NCBI GenBank assembly: GCA_964195615.1
Contig: CAXMSB010000159.1
Location: 1,747 to 65,746 of the forward strand
Length of the DNA: 64,000 bases
Direction of reading: 5' to 3'
Source of the DNA: an uncultured Granulosicoccus sp.
Lineage (GTDB): Bacteria; Planctomycetota; Planctomycetia; Pirellulales; Lacipirellulaceae
Part shown: positions 21,245-39,933 of the stretch, piece by piece
How positions within the stretch are numbered: the stretch's first letter is position 1
Layout: each line of letters begins with the position of its first letter
The notes under the pieces: generated by a model
What the model was told of the DNA's origin: nothing
Seen by the model: only the letters and a program-made list of their open reading frames with translations
The model's database searches: none
Position numbers and translations under genes: made by a program

Positions 21245-21283
21245 GGGTTATTCCTCGGTTGGAGATTTTTCATTTGAATTGGG

Positions 21284-21405
21284 GGAATAGAACGCGGATT
21301 TGGCGGATCGTCGCCGATTTTTTCTATGGCTGTATGACACGTGAAGTCTTTTCCGTTCCTATCCGTGAAAATCAGCCTGATCGGCGTTTATCTGCGTTCT
21401 ATTCC
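21284..21405. repeat. Inverted-repeat (MITE/REP-like) element upstream of pgk
   Basis: GGAATAGAACGCGGA / TCTGCGTTCTATTCC, 14/15 complementary; overlaps the redoxin gene stop. Confidence 0.55.
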
Positions 21406-22857
21406 TGAAGTGCGCTGAAGGTTTGCGTTGCTTTCGAGTGATACGTCTTTGATCGTGGCGGCTTCTAGTTCTTGCTCGTATTCTTGGACGAGCCCGTCAT
21501 GCTTGGCGTGCGCCTCGGCGGCGAGGTCTCCGCCTTCGAGCAGTTTGTGTACCGCCTCGACCAACGGCTCGCCCCGCACGTGCATACCGGGTTGGTACAT
21601 TTGCAGTCGACCGTCGCGGCCGATGATGATCGTGTGAGGATAAGCCGAGATGCCGAGCTTCGTATAGCTAGTTTCCTGGAGGTCGCGCAAGAGTGGGATC
21701 GAACCGCCCCAGCTCTCGAATAGACGAGCAATCGTCTCGTTCGAATCGGCCGCCAGGTTCGCGTTGACCGCGTAGAAGAGGAAATCCTCGGAGTCTTTGA
21801 GCTCTTGATACACTTGGCTGAGCAGGGGCGTGTGTTGACGGCAAGGCGGGCAGGTCTTCGACCAGAACTCCATGAGAACCAATTTACCGGCGAGCGTGGC
21901 GGGCGTGACCTCTTCTCCCTCGAGCGTCGTGAACGAAAACGGGGCAACCGGCTGTCCCAGGATCGCTGGCGGCGCCGGCGGCGGTGGGAAGACAAGCTTT
22001 CGCACGCGGCGCGCCCCTTCCGGCATTACATGGGTGAACGCGGCATCGTCGATCTCGGCGCCAAGAGCCGGATCCAAATAATCGATCCAGACCGAGTAGT
22101 GGCTAAACTCGTCGCGAGGATCAAGGGAAGAAAGTTGGGCTTCGGTCGGCAACTTCATCCGCCGCAGGGCGTGGGTCTCGACGTCGATCCACAGCACCCG
22201 CCGGCCCTCGGTGCTATCCAAGGCCACCCGATGGCAGTCGTGGCCGTGCAGCTTCTCTTGACCCAGCAGGTGGGGATTGCCATCGTCGGGAAACGGCGAC
22301 GCGGCGTCGCCCGAGGCGAGCAGCATCGGCAGTTGCGGATAGATGTTTTCCACCGAAACCCTCAGCACGGTGTCGCGCATGTGGGGTTCCGGGATAAAAT
22401 TCTCCGGCGTGAGGGTCTCCGGCGCGTCGACCTCGTGTACTTGCTCGGGCAACTCGCCGGCCCGAGAGCGAACCACTTCGCCGTTGGAAACCACGTCGAT
22501 ACTCAGATTCCGACGCGAGGGGGGAACCATTCGCTGGTGGTGGAAGCGAATCTTGTTCGGTCGCTCCAAAGCCAGCGAGAGATCAAAGAGGATGTCTTGA
22601 CGCTTCACGCCCTCCGCCCGCCGGACGACTTCCAGGACGTAGTTGGCATGATCGGAGTAGCGATCGGTCTGGCGATAAGCGGCGACCATCTGCTGGAGCA
22701 CTTCGGAGGCCGTTTGCCCCGTGGCGGTCCGCTCCAGGGGCGGCGGGGTTGCCGGCCCGCCCTGGCTGCAGCCAAGACTCCCCAGGGCAAGCACGCCGAG
22801 CAGTCCCAGGGCCCGGCCTGGCCAGCGCGATGAGGAAGATGTTCGGCAGAAGGCCAT
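21388..22857 (-). CDS. Lipoprotein with LolA-like domain and TlpA redoxin domain
   Basis: LGSLGC lipobox-like; LERPNKIR; EFWSKTCPPC; ISAYPHTIIIGRDG. Confidence 0.8.
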   Translation of the reverse strand: MAFCRTSSSSRWPGRALGLLGVLALGSLGCSQGGPATPPPLERTATGQTASEVLQQMVAAYRQTDRYSDHANYVLEVVRRAEGVKRQDILFDLSLALERPNKIRFHHQRMVPPSRRNLSIDVVSNGEVVRSRAGELPEQVHEVDAPETLTPENFIPEPHMRDTVLRVSVENIYPQLPMLLASGDAASPFPDDGNPHLLGQEKLHGHDCHRVALDSTEGRRVLWIDVETHALRRMKLPTEAQLSSLDPRDEFSHYSVWIDYLDPALGAEIDDAAFTHVMPEGARRVRKLVFPPPPAPPAILGQPVAPFSFTTLEGEEVTPATLAGKLVLMEFWSKTCPPCRQHTPLLSQVYQELKDSEDFLFYAVNANLAADSNETIARLFESWGGSIPLLRDLQETSYTKLGISAYPHTIIIGRDGRLQMYQPGMHVRGEPLVEAVHKLLEGGDLAAEAHAKHDGLVQEYEQELEAATIKDVSLESNANLQRTSGIERR

Positions 22858-23041
22858 GGCGGAAACCTGCAGGGCGGATTACGGGGGGGCTCGATTTGGC
22901 ACGACCGCAGAGGCCCTTGACCAACTCGGCCTTCAGTGCGCCAATGAACTCTTCAAAATACCACATGCTCCATTGCACAGCAAAGGGTGCATCCGTTCTG
23001 TGCTTTCTCTAACAGAGGGGCCGTTGCTGGACCCCAAAAAC

Positions 23042-24223
23042 ATGGTCGCCACAATTCAATTCGGCAACGAAGTCGCGCACGTACGTCCGGCCTCGCATGA
23101 ATCTGTCTCCCCGGAGCAGCTAGCGGAGCACCTGCGGGCGGCGCTCGAACAGCCTCTTGGCTATCCATCGCTGAGCGAGGCCACCGTGCCGGGTGACGAA
23201 GTGGTCGTCGCTCTCGAGCATGGCTTGCCGTTGGTGCCTCAGATACTGACGGGCACCAGTGCGGCGCTCCGCGATGCGGGCATCGAGCCGTCGCAAACGA
23301 CCTTTTTGTTTTCCCGAGAGCCAACACAATCGGGCGACGAACTCGACCAATGGGCCCCCGAGAGCGGCGTTCGGCTGGAGCGCCACAATCCGGCCGAGGC
23401 CGACGACTGCGCGTATGTCGGAGTCACCCAATCGGGCCAGGCCTTGCGCATGAACCGCCAGCTGAGCAACGCGGACATCGTGCTGCCCGTCGGGCTCACG
23501 TCGGTCGCGCTCGATGCGCAGCAGTGCGACACGTACTGCGGGTTGTTTCCCCATTACTGCGATCAGGAAACGATCGCCCGCTACCACGACTGCAAGAAAG
23601 CCGACACCGTCAAGCAGCGTCAGCATCGGCGTCGTGAGATCGACGAGTCGGGTTGGCTTCTGGGCGTGGGGCTGACGGTGCAAGTGGTTCCGGGATCGGG
23701 CGGGACGGTGGCTGCCGTGTTGGCCGGCGAGCCGACTGCCGTGGCCCAGGCGGCAACAGAAAAGTATCGCGAGGTGTGGAGTCGAGAGGTCGCAACGCGC
23801 GGCGATCTGGTAATCGCCACAATTACCGGTTCGACGGGCGAACAGTCGTGGGACGATCTGGCACGGGCCTTGGCGGCAGCCGAGAGTGTGCTGGAGAAGG
23901 GCGGTGCGATTGCGATTTGCTCGGAACTTGCCGAAGCGCCGGGACCTTCGCTCGGTCGACTCGCCGGAAGCAGTAATTTCGCCGAACTCGAACGAACGCT
24001 GCGCAGCGACAAATTTGCCGACACCCGCACGGCGCTGCACTTCTGTCGGGCGTTGGAGCGGGGCCCGGTTTATTTGCACAGCCAGCTCGATGCCGACCTT
24101 GTGGAGAATCTGGGTCTGGCCCCGATCGGCTCCGACGCGGAGCTGTCGCGGCTGGCCGAGTCGTACCAACGCCCCGTCGTGTTGGAAGACGCCCATCGGC
24201 TGTTGCCCAGGTTGAGTGAATAG
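23042..24223 (+). CDS. Lactate racemase (LarA)/DUF2088-domain protein
   Basis: ALEQPLGYPSL, VPGDEVVVAL, ERHNP, NRQLSNADIVLPVG. Confidence 0.75.
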   Translation: MVATIQFGNEVAHVRPASHESVSPEQLAEHLRAALEQPLGYPSLSEATVPGDEVVVALEHGLPLVPQILTGTSAALRDAGIEPSQTTFLFSREPTQSGDELDQWAPESGVRLERHNPAEADDCAYVGVTQSGQALRMNRQLSNADIVLPVGLTSVALDAQQCDTYCGLFPHYCDQETIARYHDCKKADTVKQRQHRRREIDESGWLLGVGLTVQVVPGSGGTVAAVLAGEPTAVAQAATEKYREVWSREVATRGDLVIATITGSTGEQSWDDLARALAAAESVLEKGGAIAICSELAEAPGPSLGRLAGSSNFAELERTLRSDKFADTRTALHFCRALERGPVYLHSQLDADLVENLGLAPIGSDAELSRLAESYQRPVVLEDAHRLLPRLSE

Positions 24224-24246
24224 TTCCTCCAGTGAACGGCCCTGCG

Positions 24247-25230
24247 ATGACCGCCCCCGACGACTATTCATTTCTTGACCAATATGATGCCTTGCTCAAT
24301 CGGTGCGGCTACGTGGCCCTCGAAAATTGGTCGGTCGTTGCCCTAACCGGCACCGATCGCCAGAATTTTCTGCACAACATGTGTACCAACGAGATCAGCA
24401 AGCTCGCGGCAGGCGAAGGATGCGAAGCGTTTTTCACGGACGTAAAAGGAAGGATCGTGGCTCACGCGTGGGTATTGCTGCGGGAAGATCGCATCACGCT
24501 GCTGGCCGTTCCCGAGCAAGCCGAGCTGATCGTCAGCCACTTGGATCGCTACATCATTCGCGAAGACGTGCAGCTTGCCGACCGGTCGCAAGCCGAGGTG
24601 TGGACGGTGGTCGCGGGGGCGCAAGCGGGCGCGGTGCTCAGCGATCATTGCGAACAGTTGACCAAGCCGTGGCAGAACGCGGCGTACCAATTGGGTGGCG
24701 TGAAGTGTCTGCTGGTGCGATTTGATCTGCCGGGGCGAATCGCATTTTTGTTGGGCACTTCCCGCGACCAAGCCGCCGCGCTTCATCAGCAGTTGGAGGC
24801 GGCGGGCACGATCGCCTGCGGCCAGCGGGCTTGGGATGCCCTGCGAGTCGAAACGGGCTGGCCGCTATTCGGCATCGACTTCGATCACTCGCACCTACCC
24901 CAAGAAGTGGCACGCAACGCCCAGGCGATTAGTTTCACGAAGGGCTGTTATCTCGGGCAGGAAACCGTGGCACGGATCGACGCCCTGGGGCACGTCAACC
25001 GACAGTTGACTACGCTCCGCTTTGCCGAAGGCGCGGCACCCGAGCCGGGCACCACGCTCACGCAGCAAGATCAACAGGTCGGCGTAGCCACCACCGTCGG
25101 ACAATCGCCCCGCGCCGGCGCCTCGCTGGCACTGGCCATGGTGCGACGCGGCTCGAACGAAGTCGGCACGACGCTCGATTCAGAAGTCGGCCCCGTCGAA
25201 GTCATCGCCACGCCAGCGTTCGCTCCGTGA
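24247..25230 (+). CDS. ygfZ: YgfZ/GcvT folate-binding protein
   Basis: TGTDRQNFLHNMCTN; KGCYLGQETVARI. Confidence 0.92.
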   Translation: MTAPDDYSFLDQYDALLNRCGYVALENWSVVALTGTDRQNFLHNMCTNEISKLAAGEGCEAFFTDVKGRIVAHAWVLLREDRITLLAVPEQAELIVSHLDRYIIREDVQLADRSQAEVWTVVAGAQAGAVLSDHCEQLTKPWQNAAYQLGGVKCLLVRFDLPGRIAFLLGTSRDQAAALHQQLEAAGTIACGQRAWDALRVETGWPLFGIDFDHSHLPQEVARNAQAISFTKGCYLGQETVARIDALGHVNRQLTTLRFAEGAAPEPGTTLTQQDQQVGVATTVGQSPRAGASLALAMVRRGSNEVGTTLDSEVGPVEVIATPAFAP

Positions 25231-25315
25231 CCTCACGGACATCTTGTGCCATGCACTGCCCCAGGCACAGGGACAAAACTAGGGCTTTGTCATTGCTAGG
25301 AACTAGGACGAGAGG

Positions 25316-26449
25316 CTAGGTGCGCAGCGAATGGCTCATGGCCACGGCGATGGGCAGGAAGATGAGAATCGGCAGCCAGGCGGCGAGCGTCGGGCGGAGC
25401 AGATTCAACCCCCCCAGCGATTGACAGGCCAACGTCGCCAGAGAGAACGCCACCGCCACCAGCAGACAGATGCCAAACGACAGGAACAGGTTGCGATTGC
25501 GGCGAGAAAACATCAGCGGCAGCCCCAGCATCAACAGCGTGCCATCCATCAGCGGCTGCATCAGCCGCGAGTGGACGGCCACGCGGACGTCGGCCCCCAG
25601 TTCGGTGCTGGGACTTCCCAATTCGGCGATCAGCTCGCCCGTCGAGGCATAGTTTCGCCAGGCAGAGCCGCTGGCCAGAAGTTGAAAGCGAACTTGCGAC
25701 ACGACGAACGCCTGTCCCGGCTCGAGCCAACTGGCGTCCCGGGGCGTGATGACAACCGGCTCGCCTTCAAGCGTGAGCGAAGCAAGGCGATCGATCTTGC
25801 GCGGCACCGTCACACCGTCGAGCAGGTAGCCGCTCGGATGCTCGCTCGTCGCCGCCAGGCAGTAGGCGTTTGCCGCGACGAGTTGCGTACCATAGCGAGT
25901 GAGTGTCGAGGGCAGGACGAAGGTCGGTTTGATAATCCGCTGTTCGGCAGCCACCGTCTTCTCGCCGCCGATGAGAATATCAGTGCGGCCATCGTAACGG
26001 GCCTCCAGGTCCCGCGACTGATTGCCGCCTAGGTTCTTCGTGTCGCGCATGAGCTCAGCACGGACGCTGGGAATGACAAACTCACGATTGGCAACGCCGA
26101 GCAAGCTGACCACGACCGCCGAAATCAACAACGGCTTAATGACGCGAAACTTGGAGATTCCGGCCGCCAACATCGCGGTGAGCTCTTGGTGCCGTTCGAG
26201 CCAAGTCACCGTAAACATGGCCGCGATCATCGCCAGCATGCCGCTGGTGCGGTCGAAGAAACCGAGCGAACGATAGCCGTAGTACTGGACAATGGTGCCC
26301 AACAGATTGCCATGCTCGGCCGCGTGGGCGGAGAAATGGTCCAGGTGGCCAAAGACGTCGATCACCACATAAAGCCCGGTGAGGCTCAGAAAGCAAATCA
26401 CGAAGATCTGCACAAACTGCCTCAGCAGGTAGCGATCGAGAATCATCAT
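25316..26449 (-). CDS. lptG: LptF/LptG family LPS export permease
   Basis: ILDRYLLRQF, ELTAMLAAGIS, six-TM layout, LAAWLP. Confidence 0.85.
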   Translation of the reverse strand: MMILDRYLLRQFVQIFVICFLSLTGLYVVIDVFGHLDHFSAHAAEHGNLLGTIVQYYGYRSLGFFDRTSGMLAMIAAMFTVTWLERHQELTAMLAAGISKFRVIKPLLISAVVVSLLGVANREFVIPSVRAELMRDTKNLGGNQSRDLEARYDGRTDILIGGEKTVAAEQRIIKPTFVLPSTLTRYGTQLVAANAYCLAATSEHPSGYLLDGVTVPRKIDRLASLTLEGEPVVITPRDASWLEPGQAFVVSQVRFQLLASGSAWRNYASTGELIAELGSPSTELGADVRVAVHSRLMQPLMDGTLLMLGLPLMFSRRNRNLFLSFGICLLVAVAFSLATLACQSLGGLNLLRPTLAAWLPILIFLPIAVAMSHSLRT

Positions 26450-26580
26450 CGGGCACTTTTACCGGCGGGGGAGGCTCGGCGAAGGGAAGCGGCGCGTAGC
26501 AGGATGCGGGGAGAGTACCGCACGGCAATTGCTAGCGTCAAGAGAGACGGCTCGCGATCCAGATTCACGGTGCAGTGCTC

Positions 26581-26649
26581 TGTGGGAGGCGTCTCCGACG
26601 GCGACAGTCCCAATCCAAGCTCATATCGCCGTCGGAGACGCCTCCTACA
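26581..26649. repeat. REP doublet, family A, at left island boundary
   Basis: TGTGGGAGGCGTCTCCGACGGCGA / TCGCCGTCGGAGACGCCTCCTACA. Confidence 0.92.
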
Positions 26650-26923
26650 TGGCACTACCCTTCCTTCCTAGATTGAAAATGAAAGACCCTGGCGTCCGCA
26701 AGGTTCTCAGAGAGACGATTGGTAGCGGTGCTGGCAGACGATATCCAAGCCGACCTTCTTGTCTCCCCTTGGAGGGGACGTACTGGGTCTCCCCTGATTT
26801 TCTTTCTTCCTGTATTTCCATGCGTCCAAACTTGTAACGGTATCCCCCTCATTCCAACGACTTGTCGTTGGCTCAGGAACCCTTGACGCTCTAGATATTC
26901 GACAAGGAATTCGTTAACCCCAA

Positions 26924-26952
26924 GTCGCCGGGCAACCCCCGGCGGCTTTTTT
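26924..26952 (+). terminator. Rho-independent terminator
   Basis: GTCGCCGGG-CAACC-CCCGGCGGC-TTTTTT. Confidence 0.7.
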
Positions 26953-26968
26953 CGTGTGCCCTATGGGC

Positions 26969-27243
26969 ATTGCCGCTGGCCGTGTTGCCGATGAGTGTGT
27001 TGTTGTCATTGTCGGAGTCGAGGAAGAAGCCGATGTGGTTATTGCCACTGGCTGTATTGCCCTTGAGCGTGTTGCCGTTGCCGCCCAAGAGGAAGCTAAA
27101 TCCGTCGAAGTTGTTGTCGCTGGCCGTGTTGCCGGTGAGCGTGTTGCCGTCGCTGCCGAAGACGAAGGTGAACCCATCGCCACCATTGTTACCGCTGGCC
27201 GTGTTGCGGATAAGCGTATTGGTGTCGCTGGCGGCGACCCCAA
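26969..27243 (-). pseudogene. Fragment of right-handed parallel beta-helix (NosD-like) repeat protein
   Basis: Four ~23-aa repeats: NTLIRNTASGN, NTLTGNTASDN, NTLKGNTASGN, NTLIGNTASGN; no start. Confidence 0.85.
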
Positions 27244-27810
27244 TGCGAGCGCCGTCACACTTACTTCAGGAGTTGCCGACTACTCAGCGGCTGTGTTTTC
27301 CGGATTTGATATCTACATGAACAGCTACAGCGAGATATCGTGGCACCTCGGTGAGTGGAAGGGGATACTGGCCCATGAAATCGGTCATGCCATTGGCCTC
27401 ACTGATGTGGGTCAATACGTGGAGCCCGACGACCCAACTCTCAGTCAATTCTACGACGACAACTACGACGATACGAGCAGCGCTACAGCACTGGCCACGC
27501 TCAGCAATTCGTTCGCGGACGTCATCGACCCGTTCGACCCAGACAACTCGCCCGCCCTGATGCTCCACAATGTCTGCGAGTTGACAACTCCCGGTGATCC
27601 TGATTCGTGCTTTGGCGATCCGGGCAGCGACACGCCAGGTGTCGATATCTTCATGGGCTTCGGTGGATCCAGTAGCAGTCCCCAAAACGACGACTTTGCC
27701 GGACGACAGCTTTTGTATCCGTATGTAGTTCCCGAGCCGACGTCGTTAGCCATGCTTCTCCTTGGGTTGGCAAGTTTGGTCCAAACGCGGCGGCGAAAGA
27801 GAACGACTCC
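27244..27810 (+). pseudogene. C-terminal fragment of a metzincin-like PEP-CTERM protein
   Basis: HEIGHAIGLTD (27374-); VPEPTSLAMLLLGL...RRRKR (27728-); N-terminus absent and no stop after the sorting signal. Confidence 0.8.
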
Positions 27811-27839
27811 TCGGTTGGGCAAAACTCGAAGTGCCGATG

Positions 27840-28305
27840 GGACGAATTATCAGCTGGAAAACGTCTGGCCGTCGCCCTCAGACAGGGTAAGAGCGGAGGC
27901 CGTCGACTTCTGGCTAGCTGAGTCAGCGCTGCCAGATCGATGCGTTGCCCAACAGCGAGCTCACCAATTGCTGATTGTCGCCAGAGATGAAAGCGGCAAG
28001 GTGGCCGGAGTCAGCACGGCGGTGCCAACATTCGTCCCACAACTCGGATTCGAATGCTTTTACTATCGCACCTTTATTGGTCAGGCGCACCGAGCACAAG
28101 GTCTGCGGAGCAGGCAACTATTCTGGCGAATCATGCGGGAATCGTACCACGTACTCAATACACGTTTTCGTCAGGGCTGCGACTCACACGTACTGGGCTG
28201 CTATGGCGAAATTGAGAGTTCCTCAATCATGCGATCGCAGAACAAATTGGTTTGGCAACACAACGGAATGAACGCCGTCTACATGGGTCGCACGCAAGAC
28301 GGAAG
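27840..28305 (+). pseudogene. Fragment of an unrelated cytoplasmic hypothetical protein, fused in frame
   Basis: Globular-looking segment QLENVW...AVDFW...VAGVSTA...YYRTFI after the PEP-CTERM tail. Confidence 0.5.
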
Positions 28306-28438
28306 GCACACCGTCCGGGCCCGCTGGTGTGCTGATGGCCGTATTGAATGCGACAAGCTCCCTGGCACCCGCGAATGGCGAATCCCGGGATCCGAATATC
28401 GCCGACTACGCGACGGTGGCAAAGCAAGACCTGCCTGA
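28306..28438 (+). pseudogene. C-terminal remnant of an excisionase-like HTH protein
   Basis: TVRARWCADGRIECDKLPGTREWRIPGSEYRRLRDGG resembles TVRxWCxxGRI...WRI..E..RL HTH tails. Confidence 0.55.
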
Positions 28439-28579
28439 TAGACTGGCAAGTGATCGATTAACGTAAGTGCATCGTCATGACATTCCCCTGACACCGAACA
28501 AGGGACAAATAAGGGACACGCGAAGCAGCAAGCTTCAGGCCAAGCAAGGGTAAGAATGTAATACCCCTGCTTTCTTCAG

Positions 28580-28599
28580 TAGCCGAGGCGGGACTCGAA
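28580..28599 (-). other. tRNA 3'-end remnant (T-arm plus acceptor strand, Leu-like), probable att core
   Basis: Minus strand TTCGAGT-CCCGC-CTCGGCT-A; similarity ends after TTCGA. Confidence 0.6.
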
Positions 28600-28928
28600 A
28601 CGATTGACCTACTCGCTGGGTAGACAACAACTTCGGTCGATGCCAGTTTGCAGGCGCTGCAGAATCCCATGCAGTTGGTACTGATTCGCCTCCGATCGCA
28701 GCCGATCTGGCCAAGGTGATCGAGGCGTGGCCGACACTCCCCGAGGCAACACGAGCGGCCATCTTGCGGCTGATCCACACCTGAGAGACTAGCGCCCGGC
28801 ACCCGTCTGCACGAGTCAGTGGGAGGGCCACCAGATCAACACTTAGGGTCACCCCTGGACTGTCCGCTGAGTCTATGAATACAGGCGCGAAACGCGGCTT
28901 GGGACCCATACACGCGAGAGAGGGGCAT

Positions 28929-29173
28929 TTTTGGATCGCCCCCCACCCCTTCGCGCATCGGTTCCATGGCGTATAGTCTCCCTCTTCCTCGCCACCGGTT
29001 TCCTGCTGGCGTGACGTGTGCGTGACGAAAGCGCCGGCATGGGACCCTAATCCGCTCAGAATCTCAACCGCCCCCTCGGGCCTCTCGGCGCAGGGAAGTT
29101 AGTTGACGGCCACAGCGCGCCGCAGGAAACGTAAGTTCCGTTAAGTGCGGCGGGTGTGCACGCCGCCGCAGGA
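28929..29173 (+). repeat. Left arm of ~245-bp inverted repeat
   Basis: Aligns over its length with the reverse complement of 32605-32850, with scattered mismatches. Confidence 0.95.
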
Positions 29174-29204
29174 AATGGACATTCTCAAATCCCCGTCGGT
29201 CGAT

Positions 29205-29460
29205 GAATCCTTATAGGATCACCAGTACACCGGCTTTGTGCGTCTGGCCAGAACGGAAGCCATTGCCGAGGCCTGGAGTTTTGGCTAGACGGAATCACAA
29301 AGCCGCCGCGATAATCGATTCGAAATGGTAGCCAGCTGGGCGTTACGGATAGATGAATCCAGCTGCTAGACGGCTTTGCACAGACCTCCGAACGCCTGGC
29401 TTGCTTCGCCCCCAACGGATCACTCAGATGTAGCTCTCGAAGCTCGCTATAAGGACTCCG
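29205..29460 (+). ncRNA. Putative IS110 bridge RNA
   Basis: Stems 29231-40/29296-305, 29242-54/29278-90, 29329-39/29359-68, 29209-16/29447-54; 9-nt matches to the junction at 29377-85 and 29423-31. Confidence 0.72.
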
Positions 29461-29518
29461 CCGGACGAAGCACGGCCTACCAACTGACTAGAATCTCATC
29501 AAACAAAGGAATCCAATC

Positions 29519-30793
29519 ATGAGCGATCAACCTCATCAACCGGCCCTGTTCATCGGCATCGACTGGGCAGACCAAAAACACGACTGCTATGTTATTGACC
29601 GTGACGGCCAAGGATCTCACCGAGTCATCTCACACTCTCCGGAAAGCATCAATGCCTGGGTGAATGAAATGCTCAAGCTTGCCAAGGGAAAACCGATTGC
29701 AATTATGCTGGAGCAGTCACGCGGGCCACTGGTGTACACACTGATGTTCCGAGAAAACGTGCTGCTCTACCCGGTCAATCCAAAGCAATTAGCCCGCTAC
29801 CGCGAAAGTTATCCTGGTGGAGGTAAAGATGATCCCACTGATGCCAAGTATCTGGCGAGAATGCTTCGTGAACGCATCACGACACTGACGGCCTGGCAAC
29901 CCGATGACAAAAACACACGTCTGCTAGCTCACTTGTCCGAGCAAAGGCGCAAACTAGTCGGAAGTCAGGTCAAACTTCGACAACAGCTCACCGCCCAATT
30001 AAAGCTGTATTATCCAGTGGTTTTGGAACTCTTTGGCAAGGAATGGCAACTGCCATTGCTGCTGGGGATATTGAGTCGTTGGACCGATCCTCGCCAGCTT
30101 CGTCGTGCTGATCGACGGCTAATTCGTCGCGTCTTGAGCGAACATTCGATACGCAACGACGAACGCCAAGATCAGATCATCGCTCACATTCGTTCGGCCA
30201 GGTTACTGAGCGATGATGAAGCACTCCTTGTGCCGTCGGCAATGAGCGTCAAGCTCTTAGGCAGTCAAATTCGACAATCACGCCAGATGATTAAGGAATT
30301 CGATGCCAAAATTGCTGAACAGATGAAGCAGCATCCCGATGGGCACCTCTTTACAAGCCTACGTGGTGCTGGCGCGGCACTCGCCCCACGATTACTCTGC
30401 GCGTTTGGTTCGCAGCGAGACCGCTGGAAAGATGCCGATAGCTTGGCAGCGTTCAGTGGGATCGCACCGGTCACCAAGAAGAGCGGCAAGCTCTGTCAGG
30501 TGCATCGGCGGTTCGCGTGTCCCAAGTATCTACGCCAAACATTTCATGAGTTTGCCGACAGTGCTCGAATGTATTGTCCGTGGAGCAAGGCCCGCTATCG
30601 CCTGCTGCGGGATCGAGGCATGAAACATCATGCTGCCCTCCGGAAACTTGCCCGCAGCTGGATCCGCATCCTCTTCCGCGTGTGGAAACTCGAACACCCT
30701 TCGATTGCGACCGCTACATCGAACAACTGCAACAACGGTGTCCAGAAATCAAACCGTACTTGGAATTGCAAAAATGACGAAAACAACAACTAA
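29519..30793 (+). CDS. IS110 transposase/recombinase with 1-nt deletion near the C-terminus
   Basis: IGIDWADQKH, MLEQSRG, KDDPTDA, FSGIAPVTKKSGK. The plausible true tail TRTPFDCDRYIEQL (stop 30777) is in another frame after TGGAAA at 30683-30688. Confidence 0.93.
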   Translation: MSDQPHQPALFIGIDWADQKHDCYVIDRDGQGSHRVISHSPESINAWVNEMLKLAKGKPIAIMLEQSRGPLVYTLMFRENVLLYPVNPKQLARYRESYPGGGKDDPTDAKYLARMLRERITTLTAWQPDDKNTRLLAHLSEQRRKLVGSQVKLRQQLTAQLKLYYPVVLELFGKEWQLPLLLGILSRWTDPRQLRRADRRLIRRVLSEHSIRNDERQDQIIAHIRSARLLSDDEALLVPSAMSVKLLGSQIRQSRQMIKEFDAKIAEQMKQHPDGHLFTSLRGAGAALAPRLLCAFGSQRDRWKDADSLAAFSGIAPVTKKSGKLCQVHRRFACPKYLRQTFHEFADSARMYCPWSKARYRLLRDRGMKHHAALRKLARSWIRILFRVWKLEHPSIATATSNNCNNGVQKSNRTWNCKNDENNN

Positions 30794-31017
30794 CCACTTG
30801 CGGAAAGCTCAGATGTCTGTGCAGTTTTGGAGCTTCCTTCTTGCCCTGCGGGGTGCCAACCGAGGGGTTTGCTCAACTTCCGTTTCCTGCGGCGGTCAGA
30901 TTCACCTCCGCCTCTTAATGCATGTCTCCAAGTCGCACAAGTGTGAGCCGTCGACACAATTTGCGTCCTTTGTGGACAGCGTTAGCATGTATCATGAAGG
31001 TGATATACACATTCCCC

Positions 31018-31533
31018 TTAAGTGGGCGGTTCCGACGATTTCGAGGGTCTGGCAAAGCGCCCAATCAACTCAGCACACCACAGGCCTACGAATACTAGGT
31101 AGACGGTGAGTGGCGTCCATATATCGAGCGGCGGATTCGGGGGTAGATTGGCCTGAAGCGTCCCATGCCAACTGTAGGCTAGTAACAACATCGTGGCCGC
31201 GCCGCACCATGTTATCCTCTGTGCCAACATCTGCCGTGTGGTCGCAACTCGTTCTGGCGCCAGCCAATACTCCTTGTGGGGCAAATTGATTAGTGTCGTC
31301 GGTACACGACTCATGAAGAGCGGTGGCACGGCAAGAAACATTAGCACAACCACCCAGGAACCAGCCATCACGCCGACGAATTTCTCCTTCGGCATCCAAC
31401 TGTCCGGCTGGCCCTGAGCATTGAAATGGCTCGCCGCAGGGTCCAGCAACTGCGGATAGTAATAGAAAGTTTCACCGCCGACGACAACGGTCGCCCCAAC
31501 AATCACTAGCCACGGCAACCAACAACGAAACAT
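31018..31533 (-). CDS. DUF1648-type membrane protein
   Basis: ASHFNAQGQPDSW, INLPHKEYWL, three TM segments. Confidence 0.8.
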   Translation of the reverse strand: MFRCWLPWLVIVGATVVVGGETFYYYPQLLDPAASHFNAQGQPDSWMPKEKFVGVMAGSWVVVLMFLAVPPLFMSRVPTTLINLPHKEYWLAPERVATTRQMLAQRITWCGAATMLLLAYSWHGTLQANLPPNPPLDIWTPLTVYLVFVGLWCAELIGRFARPSKSSEPPT

Positions 31534-32604
31534 TGCGACGCCTCACTTCGATAACAACTAGGTTAATCCTCCGCCGGTCTATTCGCCCAGCGGTGCGATA
31601 TCTTGCCAAAATTATCGTGCGGCCCATGCACACCCGCCGTTAGACACGGACGTTGTTGAATTGCTTTCGGCGTGAAACGCCGATGGGGACTTAGAAACTA
31701 GCGTCGGACGATGAAGCCGAAGCGTCAAAGCAATTCGCCAAAACTGCTTCGGTCATTTTGTCCGATGCAGGTTCGGGAATTCGATGTCTGCCCCAGACGG
31801 GACAGTCTGGATCATCGAACCAACTGCCGCTAACACCAGTCGGGCGATTTCACCGACCGCATTTGAGAATAGCCGGCTTCGACGCTTGGAAGGGGGCAAC
31901 CCACCCGTGCATCCAATCGTTAACCTCCAGGGTGCGGCGGTGTGCACAACCGCTGAGCTTAGCGAACGTTCGTTAACCTGCTCACGTGACCGTGTACTAG
32001 CCCGCTAGCAAAATCCCTCGTACCAATAATCTCTGCTGGTTGGTACGCCGTCGCTAGTTTGGTAGTCACCGTTTCTGGCTTCCCAAGTACCAGTTATTAT
32101 AATGCTAGAGTGCCATTCAACTGTTTAACCTCGAAAAGCCGGATTACTCCACGTGAATAAAATCAATAAGTAATGGACCGAGACTGCCGCATCGCGAGAG
32201 TTTGGCATCCCTTCGACGACTTTAAGACATGCCTCGACACGAGGCGACATCGAGACTGCTACGACGGCCTGCGGACTACCATTGCTATATGGTCCATCGA
32301 TTCAGAAATATAAACGGAAATATCGGCCTAACAACAAGATCAGCGGTGTCATCCGCCGTCGCCGTACAGCCGTAAGAAGCAAAGGGTTCATTCACGCAGT
32401 GCCAGATTCATCTATGCCCCAGGGTTCGGCGTTATGTGGATTGAGAGCGTTCTGGGGGCCAGCCATAAAAGGCAATCGCAAAGATACGCAAATCACCTGT
32501 GCTACATGCAAAGGGAGGGCAACGAGCAAGACTGTCTCTTAACCGGTCCTGAGGTCGCTTGCTCGAAACACAGATTGCACACTTCGGTCTTCTTGGCTGC
32601 CGTA

Positions 32605-32850
32605 TCCTGCGGCGGAGTGCACACCCGCTGCACTTAACGGAACCTACGTTTCCTGCGGCGCGCTGTGGCCGTCAACTAACTTCCCTGCGCCAAGAGGCCC
32701 CGAGGGGGCGGTTAAGTTTCTGAGCGGATTCGGGTCCCATGCCGGTGGTTTCGTCACGCACATGTCACGCCGGCTGGAAACCGGTGGCGAGGGGATGGGA
32801 GACTATACGCCATGGAACCGAGGCGCGAAGGGGTACCCCCGGATCCAAAA
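32605..32850 (-). repeat. Right arm of ~245-bp inverted repeat
   Basis: Reverse complement of 28929-29173. Confidence 0.95.
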
Positions 32851-33052
32851 TTCCCCCAGCGCACTTACATGATACCCCTATCCACACGGACAGTTGCAAC
32901 ATGCTTCAACACTCCACGGAAGACGCTCACAGTGACCGCAGCACGTGACTACAGCACACCAAACACCCGATTGTAGCCTCGGCTGCGAACGGACTGGGGT
33001 GGGTGGGTCCCGACACGATGCACTGACGGCGCACGGAGTGGGCCAGCACTCG

Positions 33053-34284
33053 CTAGCCGATCGCCATTGCCACCTCCATCCCCTTGGCAAAGTCACGCTC
33101 GGCGTACACTTGGGTCACGCCCAGCTTACTATGGCCGAGTATCACTCCCGCCGCCTCCAGGCCAAATTCTCGACGGATTTCGGTGGCCGCGGCGTGGCGT
33201 AGCTGGTTGGGTGACCAGTGGTGCTCTGACTGCCACTCGCGAAGTTCCTGCTTCTCGGCTTCGGTGAACTTAGAAAGCAGTTTGTAGCCCAACTTCGGGT
33301 GAGGAAAGGCCTTGTCACACCCGCGATTGATGGCACGGCGATAGCTGCAAGTCGTGTAGCACTCACCCGCTTCTCGCTTGGGATTGCTTTTGCGTCTTCG
33401 TGAGGGGCTCGGTGGAGTTCTTCTGGTGGATCGTGAGCCGGCATAACGCTTGGCCACGCTATCGATGGGTCGGAAGCAGTACATCGAGACATCGCGGGCC
33501 AGATACCGCAAGAGTATCTCCTGCCCCCTCGGCCCGATGGGGATGATTCGGTCACGCCCGTGGTGCTCGGTCTTGTGGGACTCAGGCCGGTATTCCCAAA
33601 CCTCACCGCTGCGGTCGATATCACACGGTCGCATGATACAGACCTCCCCAGGCCGCATCCCCGTCAGACGCTGTAGGCGGGTCATATCGGCCACTATGCT
33701 AAGCATGTGTACTAGGTAGCCGTGGCTACAGCGGCCACTGGGGGGCTCTCAGGGGCCTCTGTGCGGCCCTTCCGCAGGCCATCCACCGTAGATAGCGCCT
33801 GATGGACGCTCGCGGGAACCAATTCCTTGGAAACTCCCCAGCGAAAGACTCGCCGGACCCGGCTGATGGCGCAGTTGATCCCGGACCTACTCCGCCCCGT
33901 GGAAATCAGCCTTTGTCGGACTGCCTCAAGTGCCAGCGGTCCGAACTCCCGGGCGGGGCTATTGCCGTACAGTTCCCGGATTGGGCGCAGGGAGGATTTG
34001 ATTACGGCCACTTCGCTGGTCTGCTCGCCGTTCTTGCGATAGTAGCCCTTGGCGAATTTCCAGTAGCGCAAGAGCAACTCCGCTACGGTGAGGTCACTGT
34101 CCTGCCCACTAGCCAGTCCTCGGCCATTGGCTAGCCACTCTTCTATCAGACGGTCGTACTCACGCTTGCTGGTCTTGGTCCCGTGCCGCCCCAGATAGAT
34201 GTCGCGGCCATTGAGGGTGACAACCGCTTGCCCGCTGGCCCTGTGTTTGCGGTACTTGGGAACAGAATTCGATAGTCTTGGCAT
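33053..34284 (-). pseudogene. Tyrosine integrase split by a frameshift (ORFs 33712-34284 and 33053-33706)
   Basis: N-terminal PKYRKHRASGQAVVTLNGRDIYLG; GMRPGE, HKT, NQLRH, LGHS, TQVY. Confidence 0.92.
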
Positions 34285-34310
34285 CGTGCAGTCTCCTATG
34301 GTTCGGACGC

Positions 34311-34332
34311 CAAAACGGTATATACCGTTTTG
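34311..34332. promoter_or_regulatory. Perfect 22-bp palindrome upstream of integrase (candidate operator)
   Basis: CAAAACGGTATATACCGTTTTG, 27-48 nt before the start codon. Confidence 0.55.
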
Positions 34333-34429
34333 CGCCTCTTAAACAACAGGCTGCACTGCCGACCATCGACAGGTATTTCACTCTGGAAATCAGCGGGTTT
34401 CGTAACTTTCAGTTACCCGCATTCCATTA

Positions 34430-34895
34430 TACAGTTCCCTTGCTGGAGATGAAAGAGGATGCCACGGACCGGCTGGCGGGCGCGTTCGGAAAGCTCATCG
34501 CACTGCGGTTCGGCAAGACAATCCGCGAGCTTGAGCCCGATGCGGTGGTGCCGATCCCCATGCACGTCTGGCGAAGACTGTCGCGTCGGGCGAATCCGCC
34601 CGTTTCGCTGGCGGCGACGATCGGTCGACAGTTGGGTCTGCCAGTCGAGACGAATTTGCTCAGTTGGCAGCGCGACACCTCGGCCCAATTGGGCCTCTCG
34701 CAGCAGGGCCGTTTCCGCAACATGCGGGACGTAATGCGCGTTCGGCCCGGCTATCGGTTGGACGCACCACGACTGCTGCTGGTCGACGACATTCTCACCA
34801 CGGGCGCCACTTGCAGCGAAGCGGCCCGCGTGCTGAAACGGAGCGGCGCCGCGGAGGTCTCCGTGGTGGTCGTGGGCCGAACGCCTATTGTTTGA
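34430..34895 (+). pseudogene. comF: ComF-family protein lacking its N-terminus
   Basis: VVPIPMH, QLGLS..GRFRNM, LLVDDILTTGATCSE; upstream part of the ORF is non-homologous island sequence. Confidence 0.8.
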
Positions 34896-35010
34896 CCCCG
34901 ACGGGTAGTCATAACCGTTAAATTCCTGCTACAAAACAACCTCCGATGGGCTATCATTGAGGGTCCCCGCCAGATCCCCTAACCCAGCCGGCAACTCCCA
35001 GTAGTCCGCC

Positions 35011-35949
35011 ATGGATATTCCTGAATTCTCCGCCGCTTCCAAGCGCCGACCGCTCGACCCGTTTCGTCGTGCCGTGATTCGCGGCTTGGGGGTGTTGCTG
35101 CCGCCGCTGTTGACGATCGTCATTTTTGTTTGGATCGGCAACACCGTGGCCAACTACGTGTTGGGGCCGATGGAAGCTGGCTCCCGTCGCGTTCTGGTTG
35201 CCCACTACCAGGATCGGATTCTGCCAGAGAATAGTATTCCCGAGGAGCAGTTAACCGACGGTAGGGCGCAGCTCGACGGCGTGCTCTATCAGCAAACCGC
35301 CGACGGACGCTTCGTACCCGCGGAAGACTACGAATATGTCGAGCAGGCACTGGAACCGCTGTCCGTGCCAGAGAAAGCCAACGAGATCTACGGCGACTTC
35401 GTCGACCAGAAATTTCTCCAGCCGCATGTGGTGATCCCGCTGTTTCTGTGTGTCTTTCTGCTGGTGTTGTATCTGCTGGGAAGATTCCTGGCGGCTGGCG
35501 TGGGCCGATTCTTCTGGATGCAGTTTGAACGAATCATCAATCGGCTGCCGCTGATTCGTAACGTCTACTCGTCAGTCAAGCAGGTGACCGATTTCCTGTT
35601 CAGCGAACGGGAGATCGAGTACACGCGCGTCGTGGCGATCGAGTATCCCCGCAAGGGAATCTGGACGATCGCCATGGTCACGGGCGAGAGCCTGCTCGAC
35701 ATCCGCTGTGCGGCCAACGAACCGGTGCTGTCGCTGTTGGTGCCGACCTCGCCGATGCCTTTTACCGGGTTTACGGTCACGGTGAGGAAAAGTGCAACGA
35801 TCGACCTGGACATCACGATCGACCCGGCGTTCCAGTTCATCGTCAGTTGCGGCGTGGTGGTGCCATCGCCGCAGATTTCGCAGGCTCTGGCGGATCGCGA
35901 ACAGTCGCAACAGTCCGCTTCCTCGCTCTCCGCGCCGGTTGGCGAGTAG
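35011..35949 (+). CDS. DUF502 membrane protein
   Basis: GLGVLLPPLLT, RLPLIRNVYSSVKQV, VAIEYPRKG, VPTSPMPFTG. Confidence 0.9.
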   Translation: MDIPEFSAASKRRPLDPFRRAVIRGLGVLLPPLLTIVIFVWIGNTVANYVLGPMEAGSRRVLVAHYQDRILPENSIPEEQLTDGRAQLDGVLYQQTADGRFVPAEDYEYVEQALEPLSVPEKANEIYGDFVDQKFLQPHVVIPLFLCVFLLVLYLLGRFLAAGVGRFFWMQFERIINRLPLIRNVYSSVKQVTDFLFSEREIEYTRVVAIEYPRKGIWTIAMVTGESLLDIRCAANEPVLSLLVPTSPMPFTGFTVTVRKSATIDLDITIDPAFQFIVSCGVVVPSPQISQALADREQSQQSASSLSAPVGE

Positions 35950-36034
35950 CGATTGCTGGCAAGCGATTGACGCTCTACGATAGAGGCTTCCTCCGTCGTT
36001 TCCGCTTGGCACCTTGGGTTGAGATTGACCACTC

Positions 36035-36958
36035 GTGACAGCTCCCCGCGTTCGCATCGGCACTCGTGCAAGCCAATTGGCCCAATGGCAGGCCAACTGG
36101 GTGGCTGACGAGCTGCGCAAGTTGGGCGCCTCGGTCGAATTGGTCGAGATCGCCACCAGCGGCGACGTCCAGCAGGTCGGGCCGATTGCTGGCATCGGGC
36201 TGCAGGGTGTCTTTACCAAGGAGATCCAAGCGGCACTGCTCAACCAGCAGGTCGACGTCGCCGTGCATAGCCTCAAAGATCTTCCCACTGAAACGGTGGG
36301 CGGCCTGATGCTCGCGGCCGTGCCCCGGCGTGAAAGCTCTGCCGACGCTCTGGTTTCCAACACGGCACAAGCGCTCGCCGAGTTATCCCCAGGTGCCCGC
36401 GTGGGAACCGGCAGCCACCGCCGTCAGGCACAACTGAGACACTTGCGGCCTGATCTGCAGGTGGTTGGCATTCGTGGGAACGTTGACACTCGCCTACGCA
36501 AACTCGACGAGGAGCAGTACGACGCGATCATCCTTGCCGCAGCCGGCTTGCGGCGTCTCGGTTGGGAAGGTCGCATCCGAGAACTGCTCGAGCCGCCGCG
36601 GATGTTGCCCTCGCCAGGGCAGGGGGCTTTGGGGCTGGAATGTCGCGCGGCTGACTCCGCCTCGGGAGTGCTTCTTGCTGAACTGGACCATCTACCCTCG
36701 CATCAGGCCGTGACTGCGGAACGCTCGATGCTGGCGCTGCTACATGCCGGTTGTTCGGCGCCAGTGGGCGCTTGGGGACGGATCGAAGGGGCCGAGCTCG
36801 TGCTGGACGGGTTGGTTGCCAATCTGGAGGGGACGCAGGTGTTGCGAGCCTCGGCTCGTGGCGAAACCGCAAGCGGAGATCAGCTTGGTCAGAGGGTCGC
36901 GGAGGACTTGCTTGAGCAGGGGGCCGCGGCGATCGTGGAAGCGGCACGAGATGCTTAA
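36035..36958 (+). CDS. hemC: Hydroxymethylbilane synthase
   Basis: IGTRASQLA, GVFTKE, AVHSLKDLP, GTGSHRR, RGNVDTRL, GCSAPVG. Confidence 0.97.
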   Translation: MTAPRVRIGTRASQLAQWQANWVADELRKLGASVELVEIATSGDVQQVGPIAGIGLQGVFTKEIQAALLNQQVDVAVHSLKDLPTETVGGLMLAAVPRRESSADALVSNTAQALAELSPGARVGTGSHRRQAQLRHLRPDLQVVGIRGNVDTRLRKLDEEQYDAIILAAAGLRRLGWEGRIRELLEPPRMLPSPGQGALGLECRAADSASGVLLAELDHLPSHQAVTAERSMLALLHAGCSAPVGAWGRIEGAELVLDGLVANLEGTQVLRASARGETASGDQLGQRVAEDLLEQGAAAIVEAARDA

Positions 36959-37185
36959 CTCGTCGTGCTAGCGGCAACCTCTGCCGATCTTCGACCCTCG
37001 GAAGCGGCAGGCTCTGCCGGATCGTCGCGCCAGCATCATTGGGGCGCGATTCTCGCTGGCTCCGTAACACTCTACCCGGCTAGTACTTATGCCCAGGCGC
37101 AAGAATTACCACCTAGTTGGCACGGCGCGTGCGTAGACGTTCGTCGATGGCAGGGGGGCGCACCTGCAATCCCCAATGGGCGATC

Positions 37186-37941
37186 ATGCCATACGGAATG
37201 TACCTCTCGGCCGAAGGCGCCAAGGCTCAGGCACAGCGTCTGGAGTTTATCGCCAACAATCTGGCCAACGTCGACACGCCCGGCTTCAAACGCGACGTGC
37301 CAACCTTTCAGGCCCGATTTGCCGAGGCGATTCAGCGTGGCGAAGACTATCCGGGCAGCAAGTCACAGAACGACATCGGTGGCGGCGTGAAGCTGATGGG
37401 AGTCGAGACCGACTTTTCCCACGCCACGCTCCGCAGCACCAGCGTCGGCACCGATCTGGCGATCAACGGAGACGGATTTTTTTCGGTCCGCGGCGAGGGC
37501 GGAGAGGATTTCCTCACTCGCGCGGGGAACTTCATGGTCGACGCCACAGGCCGCATGGTCACGCAGACCGGCAAGTTCTCGGTGCTGGACGACGGAGGTG
37601 GCGAGATCAAGCTCGACCCCGAACTTCCCTGGGAAATTATGTCGGGCGGCGTCATCGAACAGGCCGGCCAGAGAATCGCCATCGGACTGGAACGGCCCCA
37701 ATCGCTCGGCGATTTGGTCAAGGTCGGCAGCAACATGTTCCGCTCCTTGGGCCCCGTCGAGACGGTTGCCGAGGGCGATCGCAACATTCGCCAAGGTTAC
37801 CTCGAAATGTCGGGCGTGAGCTCGACTCGCGAGATGATGTCGATGATCGAAACATCACGGGCTTTCGAAGCGAACACCAAGTTGATTCAGCATCAGGATG
37901 GGATGTTGAGCCAATTGTTGAGTCGGGTGTTGGCTTCGTAA
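37186..37941 (+). CDS. flgF: Flagellar basal-body rod protein FlgF
   Basis: ANNLANVDTPGFK, DLAING.GFF, TRAGNF; precedes flgG. Confidence 0.88.
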   Translation: MPYGMYLSAEGAKAQAQRLEFIANNLANVDTPGFKRDVPTFQARFAEAIQRGEDYPGSKSQNDIGGGVKLMGVETDFSHATLRSTSVGTDLAINGDGFFSVRGEGGEDFLTRAGNFMVDATGRMVTQTGKFSVLDDGGGEIKLDPELPWEIMSGGVIEQAGQRIAIGLERPQSLGDLVKVGSNMFRSLGPVETVAEGDRNIRQGYLEMSGVSSTREMMSMIETSRAFEANTKLIQHQDGMLSQLLSRVLAS

Positions 37942-38014
37942 GTGCGCCGGGGTCGGGGACGACCAGGCTCGCTGAGTTATTTAATGTTGGAAAACTGATT
38001 AGGGACTGAAAATC

Positions 38015-38818
38015 ATGAGCGTTCAAACCCTCTATACTGCCGCCACGGGCATGGAAGCCCTCGAGACCAAGCTCGACGTGATCGCCAATAACATGGCGAA
38101 TATCAACACGACCGGGTTCAAGAAAGATCGGGCGAATTTCGAGGACCTCATCTATCGGGTCAATCGGCTGCCTGGCTCGACCGACGCCGACGGGAATCTC
38201 ACCTCGACCGGTATCGAAGTCGGTTTGGGTACCCGGGTCACCAGCACGCAGACCAATCACACCCAAGGCGCGATGCAGGCCACCGGCAACCCGATGGATT
38301 TCGCCATCCAGGGTCGTGGATTTTTCAAGGTAACCGATCCCGCTGGAGATTTTCTGTACACCCGGGCCGGCAATTTTGGCGTCAACGCCACGGGACAACT
38401 GGTGTTGGGTTCGGCCCACACCGGTTGGGTGGTCGACCCGGCGGTGACCATTCCCGACAACGCGGTCGACGTGGTGGTCACCTCCGATGGTCAGGTACAG
38501 TACCGCACAACTGACACTCCCACGCTGCAAACCGCTGGGCAACTCAGCCTGGCAACCTTTATCAACCCCGACGGCCTGCTGAAAGTGGGTGACAATCTCT
38601 ACAAGGAAACCGACGCTTCGGGAACGGCCACGGATCTCAATCCTGGATCGCCCGGCGTTGGCGTGGTTGCACAGGGCGCGCTGGAGTCGTCGAACGTCGA
38701 GCCGGTGCAGGAATTGATCGACCTGATCACCACGCAGCGGGCGTTCGAGCTCAACTCGCAAGTGGTGCAGGCCGGCGACCAGATCATGCAAATCGCCGCC
38801 AATCTCCGACGAGGCTAA
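38015..38818 (+). CDS. flgG: Flagellar distal rod protein FlgG
   Basis: ANNMANINTTGFKK, FEDLIY, LESSNV, QRAFELNS. Confidence 0.95.
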   Translation: MSVQTLYTAATGMEALETKLDVIANNMANINTTGFKKDRANFEDLIYRVNRLPGSTDADGNLTSTGIEVGLGTRVTSTQTNHTQGAMQATGNPMDFAIQGRGFFKVTDPAGDFLYTRAGNFGVNATGQLVLGSAHTGWVVDPAVTIPDNAVDVVVTSDGQVQYRTTDTPTLQTAGQLSLATFINPDGLLKVGDNLYKETDASGTATDLNPGSPGVGVVAQGALESSNVEPVQELIDLITTQRAFELNSQVVQAGDQIMQIAANLRRG

Positions 38819-38828
38819 GACCCACGAC

Positions 38829-39887: not shown

Positions 39888-39933
39888 ACCCACACATTTA
39901 TCTTTCACAGTCCAATAGCAACGAGAACTTCCG

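Follow-up and report, generated by a model that had tools for sequence, protein, structure and literature searches.

The insertion sequence described here is very probably a member of the IS110 group, namely a 1607-bp, IS621-like element that carries a bridge RNA in its left end and has inserted into a REP-like intergenic mosaic. It is an ordinary RNA-guided IS110 element and a new member of an already described class. The window, as we call the whole stretch of 64,000 nucleotides that was analysed, is part of contig C159 of a Bythopirellula MAG (Lacipirellulaceae, Planctomycetota; G000, 4.2 Mb in 402 contigs, 59.7% G+C). Bythopirellula polymerisocia Pla144 is a member of the same genus. One full copy of the IS was assembled in this MAG, in addition to an 81-nt left-end fragment on another contig (C269), and hence targeting by the exact guide pair is not observable twice. 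The element and its junctions consist of the following parts, given with the position in the window, the strand and the evidence for each assignment:

29202-29209, plus strand: left target (LT) GATGAATC; equals the left target guide at 9/9 positions, the first core base included
29212-29518, plus strand: left non-coding end (LE, 307 nt) with the putative bridge RNA, beginning with the right donor (RD) TATAG; alignments and a consensus fold with compensatory pairs
29214-29219, plus strand: -10 half of the putative junction promoter, TAGGAT; conservation in relatives
29231-29305, plus strand: 5' hairpin of the left end; alignments and consensus fold
29352-29360, plus strand: left target guide (LTG) GAUGAAUCC (DNA GATGAATCC); 9/9 to the left flank and first core base, same sense
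29377-29383, plus strand: right target guide (RTG) UGCACAG (DNA TGCACAG); 7/7, reverse complement of core and right flank CTGTGCA
29423-29431, plus strand: left donor guide (LDG) CUCAGAUGU (DNA CTCAGATGT); 9/9, repeats the final 9 nt of the right end in the same sense
29447-29454, plus strand: right donor guide (RDG) CUAUAAGG (DNA CTATAAGG); 8/8, reverse complement of C, CT and TATAG of the left end
29519-30793, plus strand: ORF of an IS110-family DEDD/Ser recombinase, 424 aa; Pfam, NCBIfam, alignment with IS621 8WT6 and frame comparison
30798-30816, plus strand: right end with TTGCGG (30798-30803, putative -35 half) and the left donor (LD) CTCAGATGT (30808-30816); conserved joined right and left ends (RE-LE)
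30817-30823, plus strand: right CT core (30817-30818) and right target (RT) GTGCA (30819-30823), together the 3' arm of module B (see below); relatives' boundaries and guides

The recombinase combines a DEDD RuvC-like N-terminal domain (PF01548, 2e-30) with a Ser-containing C-terminal domain (PF02371, 1e-12) and passes the equivalog model NF033542, 'IS110 family RNA-guided transposase', with 162.8 bits vs a cut-off of 140. These models bear out the family assignment of a preliminary description of this DNA. Similarity to the IS621 protein (8WT6) is remote (phmmer E 1e-5, 27.9 bits), and the GID, E, DxxD and SG motifs are retained in the alignment of the two. Comparison with six relatives revealed a 1-nt deletion near 30683-30692 that frameshifts the conserved C-terminal tail PFDCDRYIEQLQQRCPEIKPYLELQK; the frame carrying this tail stops at 30777. 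The deletion could represent a genuine defect or an artefact of the assembly, and because the tail is out of frame the activity of this IS copy is uncertain. The gene is embedded in a typical IS110-group layout, in which the left non-coding end (307 nt) is far longer than the right end, which extends 23 nt past the ORF stop (39 nt past the stop of the conserved-tail frame), and long terminal inverted repeats are absent.

Within the left end, four segments match the target and the ends of the element over their full lengths (9/9, 7/7, 9/9 and 8/8), and they are arranged in the order and strand sense of the guides in the IS621 bridge RNA. A consensus fold of 11 diverse left ends (RNAalifold) contains the 5' hairpin and a target-binding loop with its inner hairpin. 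In this fold 18 of 61 pairs keep pairing despite changes on both sides, and the pairing of the donor guide with the left tip (RD-RDG) is kept in 11/11 sequences. Covariation of guides and flanks was read from 22 loci with both junctions readable, which represent about 12 distinct elements. Here the right flank can be predicted from the RTG, with at most one mismatch, for nine different sequences of core and RT (CTCCGCA, CTGAGGT, CTCTGCG, CTCGCT, CTCTGGG, CTTCGGG, CTACGGG, CTGCAAT and CTGTGCA), the exception being one truncated locus with a 4/6 match. The LTG agrees with the left flank at 8-9 of 8-9 positions in most loci, if a register shift of 1 nt is allowed in a few. Rfam (evalue mode), searched with 28500-31500 and with seven loci containing repeat copies, returned chance matches plus one tRNA only. 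No tRNA was found within 20000-40000 of the window, and no intrinsic terminator in 28400-31600.

RNA expression, a circular intermediate and activity of the element are inferred. The left end would be expressed as a bridge RNA with two internal loops. Its target-binding loop would carry GAUGAAUCC and UGCACAG, and its donor-binding loop, with CUCAGAUGU and CUAUAAGG, would pair with the element's own joined ends; strand exchange by the recombinase at CT would then leave CT at both junctions. The predicted circle junction of the joined right and left ends reads ...CTCAGATGTCTTATAGGATC... and brings TTGCGG and TAGGAT together at a distance of 17 nt (TTGNNN-17-TAGNAT in relatives). As a putative promoter, this arrangement fits the junction promoter that is known for the family.

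The exact ends of the element were read from copies in relatives that are 74-83% identical at the DNA level. Similarity extends from CCTTATAG through CTCAGATGTCT; the conservation limits are CTTATAG at the start and GATGNCT at the end, the right limit of the shared sequence being CTCAGATG-N-CT. All copies in relatives have CT at both junctions, and uninterrupted sites have a single CT. The conservation limits, together with guide matches and covariation, thus place the element at 29210-30816 (1607 bp) with CT repeated at 30817-30818, or equivalently at 29212-30818; the left copy of the core is 29210-29211. Taken with the uninterrupted sites, the same data show that the core is CT, that the target is the 15-nt sequence GATGAATC-CT-GTGCA and that the insertion is scarless.

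The flanks of the element are repetitive on both sides, and the following features were assigned there:

28926-29175, plus strand: left copy of a species-specific repeat of about 250 bp, the last 60 nt of which are REP-like palindromic units; four-way alignment, 92-95% identity
29118-29169, no strand: REP-like units (module A), comprising the hairpin 29118-29152 and, at 29147-29169, the palindrome GCGGCGG-GTGTGCACG-CCGCCGC; inverted repeats, motif found genome-wide
29163-29200, plus strand: left palindrome arm, a REP half-site followed by the module B leader; homologous to A-B junctions on three other contigs (C42, C260, C181)
29193-29211, plus strand: left part of module B, running from the 5' stem arm CCGTCGG across the conserved loop TCGATGAAT into the beginning of the 3' arm; family alignment and HMM
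30859-30916, minus strand: right arm (30859-30895, an inverted REP half-site), then the hairpin GGCGG-TCAGATTCACCT-CCGCC (module C); uninterrupted B-C homologues in two genomes (G020, G024)

Module B has the consensus GCTTCGG-TCGATGAAT-CCGAAGC-AGTTTCGGAA. The family was collected with nhmmer, the rejoined site serving as the query and a module profile thereafter, which gave about 20 matches in the MAG, many of them near contig ends. In most genomes of the genus, a 20-nt module pattern also outnumbers the reversed pattern used as a control (e.g., 14 vs 3, 14 vs 1 and 12 vs 0). The proposal that the target lies within a repeated, hairpin-prone intergenic family is upheld by this recurrence in the MAG and across the genus. 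REP-like palindromes and a third type of hairpin (loop CAGATTCAC) are interspersed among the modules, giving BIME-like mosaics. The modules share with REP/BIME sequences the short imperfect palindromes, the many copies, the intergenic position and the mosaic clusters, at a copy number that is modest in this fragmented MAG. The assembly contains 10 exact copies of the arm motif CGCCGCAGGAAA, often as palindromes around GTGCAC. An inverted copy of the ~250-bp repeat lies at about 32590-32850, and the MAG holds about 6 copies; other species of the genus matched it only in short REP-like or terminal pieces. GTAG-tagged REPs have been reported for planctomycetes (PMC3733652), and insertion into REP elements is known for REP-targeting IS110 members. 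The MAG also encodes five Y1-transposase-like matches.

Uninterrupted copies of the target, GATGAATCCTGTGCAG, were found in relatives and metagenome contigs. Four metagenome contigs contain the 21-mer TCGATGAATCCTGTGCAGTTT; since two of them (L033 and L035) have nearly identical flanks, the contexts number at least three. One genome (G020) carries a homologous uninterrupted B-C element that is 83% identical over 93 nt of the right flank in the window; this similarity begins exactly at the base after CT, and the homologue extends leftward through ...ATGAAGCCT. A similar uninterrupted B-C element is present in a second genome (G024). Across the genus, 14 sites match GATGAATCCTGTGCAG with at most 1 mismatch, vs 5 for the reversed control, and most of the 14 are in module context. 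Exact scans of genome contigs returned neither the left junction nor the 22-nt empty site, and a search for the orthologous empty locus with the right flank and the DUF1648 gene in 27 genomes of the genus returned only paralogous or homologous repeat elements.

These sites also bear on the junctions given in the preliminary description, which had given the IS the limits 29201-30816 and a GT core and had put the target CCCGTCG-GT-CTGTGCA where one long hairpin is interrupted. GT does occur at both of these junctions (29199-29200 and 30815-30816), and the arms of the palindrome are significantly complementary. However, this reading places the 8 nt CGATGAAT inside the IS. No relative has the same 8 nt, not even the copies with 82-83% identity; the target guide at 29352-29360 matches them exactly, and they recur in uninterrupted sites. 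It further predicts the empty site CGTCGGTCTGTGCA (joined as ...CCCGTCGGT-CTGTGCA...), and a genome search with up to 2 mismatches for this 15-mer found no match in the context of the repeat. Uninterrupted members of the family instead read GGTCGATGAATCCTGTGCAG, a junction different from the proposed one, and contain CGATGAATC, which had been attributed to the IS. The GT core is refuted by these findings, and we regard the earlier model as barely credible. With CT as the core, the left junction lies about 10 nt, and the right one 2 nt, to the right of where it had been drawn, and relatives, guides and uninterrupted sites agree in replacing the earlier target with GATGAATC-CT-GTGCA.

The left target coincides with the invariant part of module B, while the core and right target lie in its 3' arm. 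Since most module copies read CG-AAGCA or CG-ACGCA at the position of core and right target, the IS uses a minority variant, CT-GTGCA. The MAG contains only two further sites with 1 mismatch, both in modules, and no other exact site. As most modules of this MAG have CG where the IS needs CT, and given these two sites, an adaptation of the guide to module B is plausible, not proven. Conversely, the location in a repeat module might be a coincidence and the repeat family might play no part in the spread of the element. The single IS copy, the lack of another exact site in the MAG, and relatives in one Lacipirellulaceae MAG that have inserted into unrelated flanks with loose LT matches would be in line with this. 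We nevertheless consider a coincidence unlikely, since the left target corresponds to the loop motif that is invariant in the module and since, in other genomes, most sites that match exactly or with 1 mismatch lie in this module as well. Moreover, a relative with 66-68% aa identity is present in nine copies, of which Stieleria magnilauensis has eight and Rhodopirellula sp. SM50 one, and all nine are inserted at ...CCCTCCC-CT-CGCT..., the same point of one REP-like repeat, which has a perfect 9-bp hairpin just downstream of the insertion point.

A long palindrome surrounds the insertion, and its two arms have the sequences and coordinates given in the preliminary description. The segment 29163-29200 and the reverse complement of 30859-30895 are identical in 31 of 39 columns, with 3 gaps. 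The best gapless inverted match of 32 nt has 24/32 identical positions; when both flanks were dinucleotide-shuffled 100 times, the best match averaged 17.3 and never exceeded 20. The inverted match of the two arms, as originally noticed, therefore exceeds chance. A hairpin of about 180 bp had been proposed for the rejoined site; the join does fold well (-62.7 kcal/mol with RNA parameters; -30.1 kcal/mol, z -4.4, with DNA parameters), and two other joins folded with z about -6.4. However, it measures 126 nt (117 nt with the earlier cut), and the break does not fall at GT. The insertion point is located in the apical region of the hairpin, the left arm ending about 10 nt before it.

The long palindrome does not extend to the family. 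Twelve paralogous or cognate sites, folded in the same way, gave no comparable structure (z about -1 for the cognate sites L033-L036), and the G020 homologue is without the left arm. Thus, the palindrome consists of two inverted REP half-sites that flank this copy of the module; it is locus-specific and incidental to recognition. What the family does share is the potential for a 7-bp stem around TCGATGAAT, which is a property of the consensus. No covariation was found in this module B stem, as 5.35 of 7 pairs form vs 5.31 when the 3' arms are dealt among the copies, and hence we make no claim of a selected structure.

It has been proposed for ISPpu10 that the DNA structure of the target acts as a gate in addition to RNA pairing, and a preprint (10.64898/2026.03.19.712850) reports that a target-encoded stem-loop adds specificity. 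Applied to our element, a DNA hairpin or cruciform would itself be required for recognition, which the consensus stem and the good fold of the rejoined site might suggest. However, the long palindrome is missing from the cognate sites, the small stem does not covary, and it is weakened in the very CT/GTGCA variant that is used by the IS. A requirement of this kind is quite improbable here. A broader possibility is that module B, with its invariant TCGATGAAT and variable arms throughout Bythopirellula, is a structured element with a function and that its stem-loop has the additional role of gating bridge recombination, the left guide of the IS being anchored on the invariant motif. This is speculative and, in our judgement, rather unlikely. 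If it were true, changing only the 5-nt right guide would retarget the IS among the variants of the module.

The palindrome could also be read as an attC-like integron site and the IS as an element of the IS1111-attC type, an analogy drawn in the preliminary description. A fragmentary tyrosine recombinase gene does lie 2.2 kb away (33053-34284). However, its fragments score far below the XerC/XerD and integron-integrase cut-offs, so that no integron integrase is among them, and a regex search of the rejoined site for an R''...R' pair (RYYYAAC...GTTRRRY) was negative. In addition, the guide RNA and the long non-coding end (307 vs ~23 nt) are both on the left, which is the IS110 layout, not that of IS1111; a long right end with a guide RNA and subterminal inverted repeats of 7-17 bp are absent. 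The probability of this reading is next to nil.

For the RNA-guided IS110 element that we favor, exact ends, core, guides and target have been fixed in a planctomycete, and the boundaries are backed by covariation in about 12 relatives. Bythopirellula polymerisocia Pla144 and Stieleria magnilauensis, which are among these relatives, are in culture, and the family is thus accessible to experiments. The locus also illustrates how junction calls can be led astray by a striking palindrome around an IS110 copy and how matching dinucleotides at both ends, here GT, can arise by chance, while the guide RNA gives the true junction. It adds one more case of bridge-recombinase targeting in a REP context, a behaviour that has already been described.

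Several known systems can be compared with this element. The IS1111 group (IS4321/IS5075; IS1111-attC) has the same recombinase superfamily and is likewise RNA-guided and site-specific. However, it carries its guide RNA in a long right end and has subterminal inverted repeats, neither of which is found here. As in REP/BIME and REPIN systems (PMC3733652), the flanks are composed, in mosaic fashion, of short palindromic units that point either way and end in ...CCGCCG(C/T)AGGA, and Y1 transposase (RAYT-like) genes are present in the genome; the copy number in this assembly is low in comparison. With the Pseudomonas elements ISPpu10, ISPpu9 and ISPa11 our IS shares site-specific insertion into dispersed palindromic intergenic repeats and a target that overlaps a potential stem-loop. 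The conserved 5' stem of ISPpu10, however, base-pairs with the LT complement and covaries, whereas the potential stem described here pairs the 5' arm with core and RT and shows no covariation. A parallel in organization is IS621 of Escherichia coli, an IS110-group element with a bridge RNA (Durrant et al. 2024, PMC11208160; structures 8WT6-8WT9). There are differences in detail, since the IS621 left end measures 191 nt vs 307 nt here, where it includes an extra conserved 5' hairpin of 75 nt and a -10-like box between this hairpin and the target loop. The proteins are only remotely similar, and the target of IS621 is the REP stem itself, whereas the target here is a module that adjoins REP-like palindromes. 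Nevertheless, both elements combine a DEDD/Ser recombinase with a long left end that encodes a two-loop bridge RNA, predicted in our case. In both, LTG, an inner hairpin and RTG are followed by LDG, an inner hairpin and RDG, with the left guides in top-strand sense, the right guides antisense and a CT core. Both also have a promoter split across the joined ends, putative here, and a natural target in an intergenic repeat.

The IS110-group insertion sequence lies between two inverted copies of a non-coding repeat, and the entire stretch from 28.9 to 32.9 kb of the window is rich in repeats. The features surrounding the element are as follows.

Window 28926-29175 (+): first copy of the ~250-bp non-coding repeat
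Window about 32590-32850 (-): second, inverted copy, with 92% identity between the copies
Window 31690-31735: additional unit resembling module B, the dispersed repeat module that holds the IS target (GCGTCGGACGATGAAGCCGAAGCGT)
Window 31925-31960: additional REP-like unit (GCGGCGGTGTGCACAACCGC)
Window 33053-34284 (-): split tyrosine recombinase, with one ORF for an Int_N-like part and a second for the C-terminal catalytic part

In the ~250-bp repeat, each copy has a TATAGT box at its start and REP-like hairpins at its end. The 3.4 kb between the two copies hold the IS, a DUF1648 gene and additional REP-like mosaics. The source genome contains about six copies of this repeat, while other species of the genus are matched by short pieces only. 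The split tyrosine recombinase, probably a decayed integrase, adjoins the right copy. In the downstream hairpin module, the loop TCAGATTCAC (window 30896-30909) agrees with the left donor of the IS, CTCAGATGTCT (30808-30818), at 7 of 9 positions, a likeness that is probably due to chance.

Within the IS, the recombinase ORF lacks 1 nt at window 30683-30692 compared with all six relatives examined. This deletion puts the final ~28 conserved residues out of frame; the catalytic motifs lie upstream of it and are intact. The left end carries a putative promoter.

Window 29286-29315: TAGACG-18-GATAAT, a sigma-70-like site with the 5' hairpin on one side and the target-binding loop on the other

Most relatives retain the -10-like box, and transcription of the bridge RNA in integrated IS copies could start from this site.

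Solitary left-end pieces of 60-190 nt, without a recombinase gene, occur in the source genome (G000) and in G001, G013, G018, G029 and G017.

G000:C269:758-838: solitary IS left-end piece (locus L005), 81 nt

This piece begins with its first base exactly at CCTTATAG, spans most of the IS 5' hairpin and is flanked by a cold-shock-like gene on one side and the start of another gene on the other. Such solitary pieces are probably relics of deleted copies.
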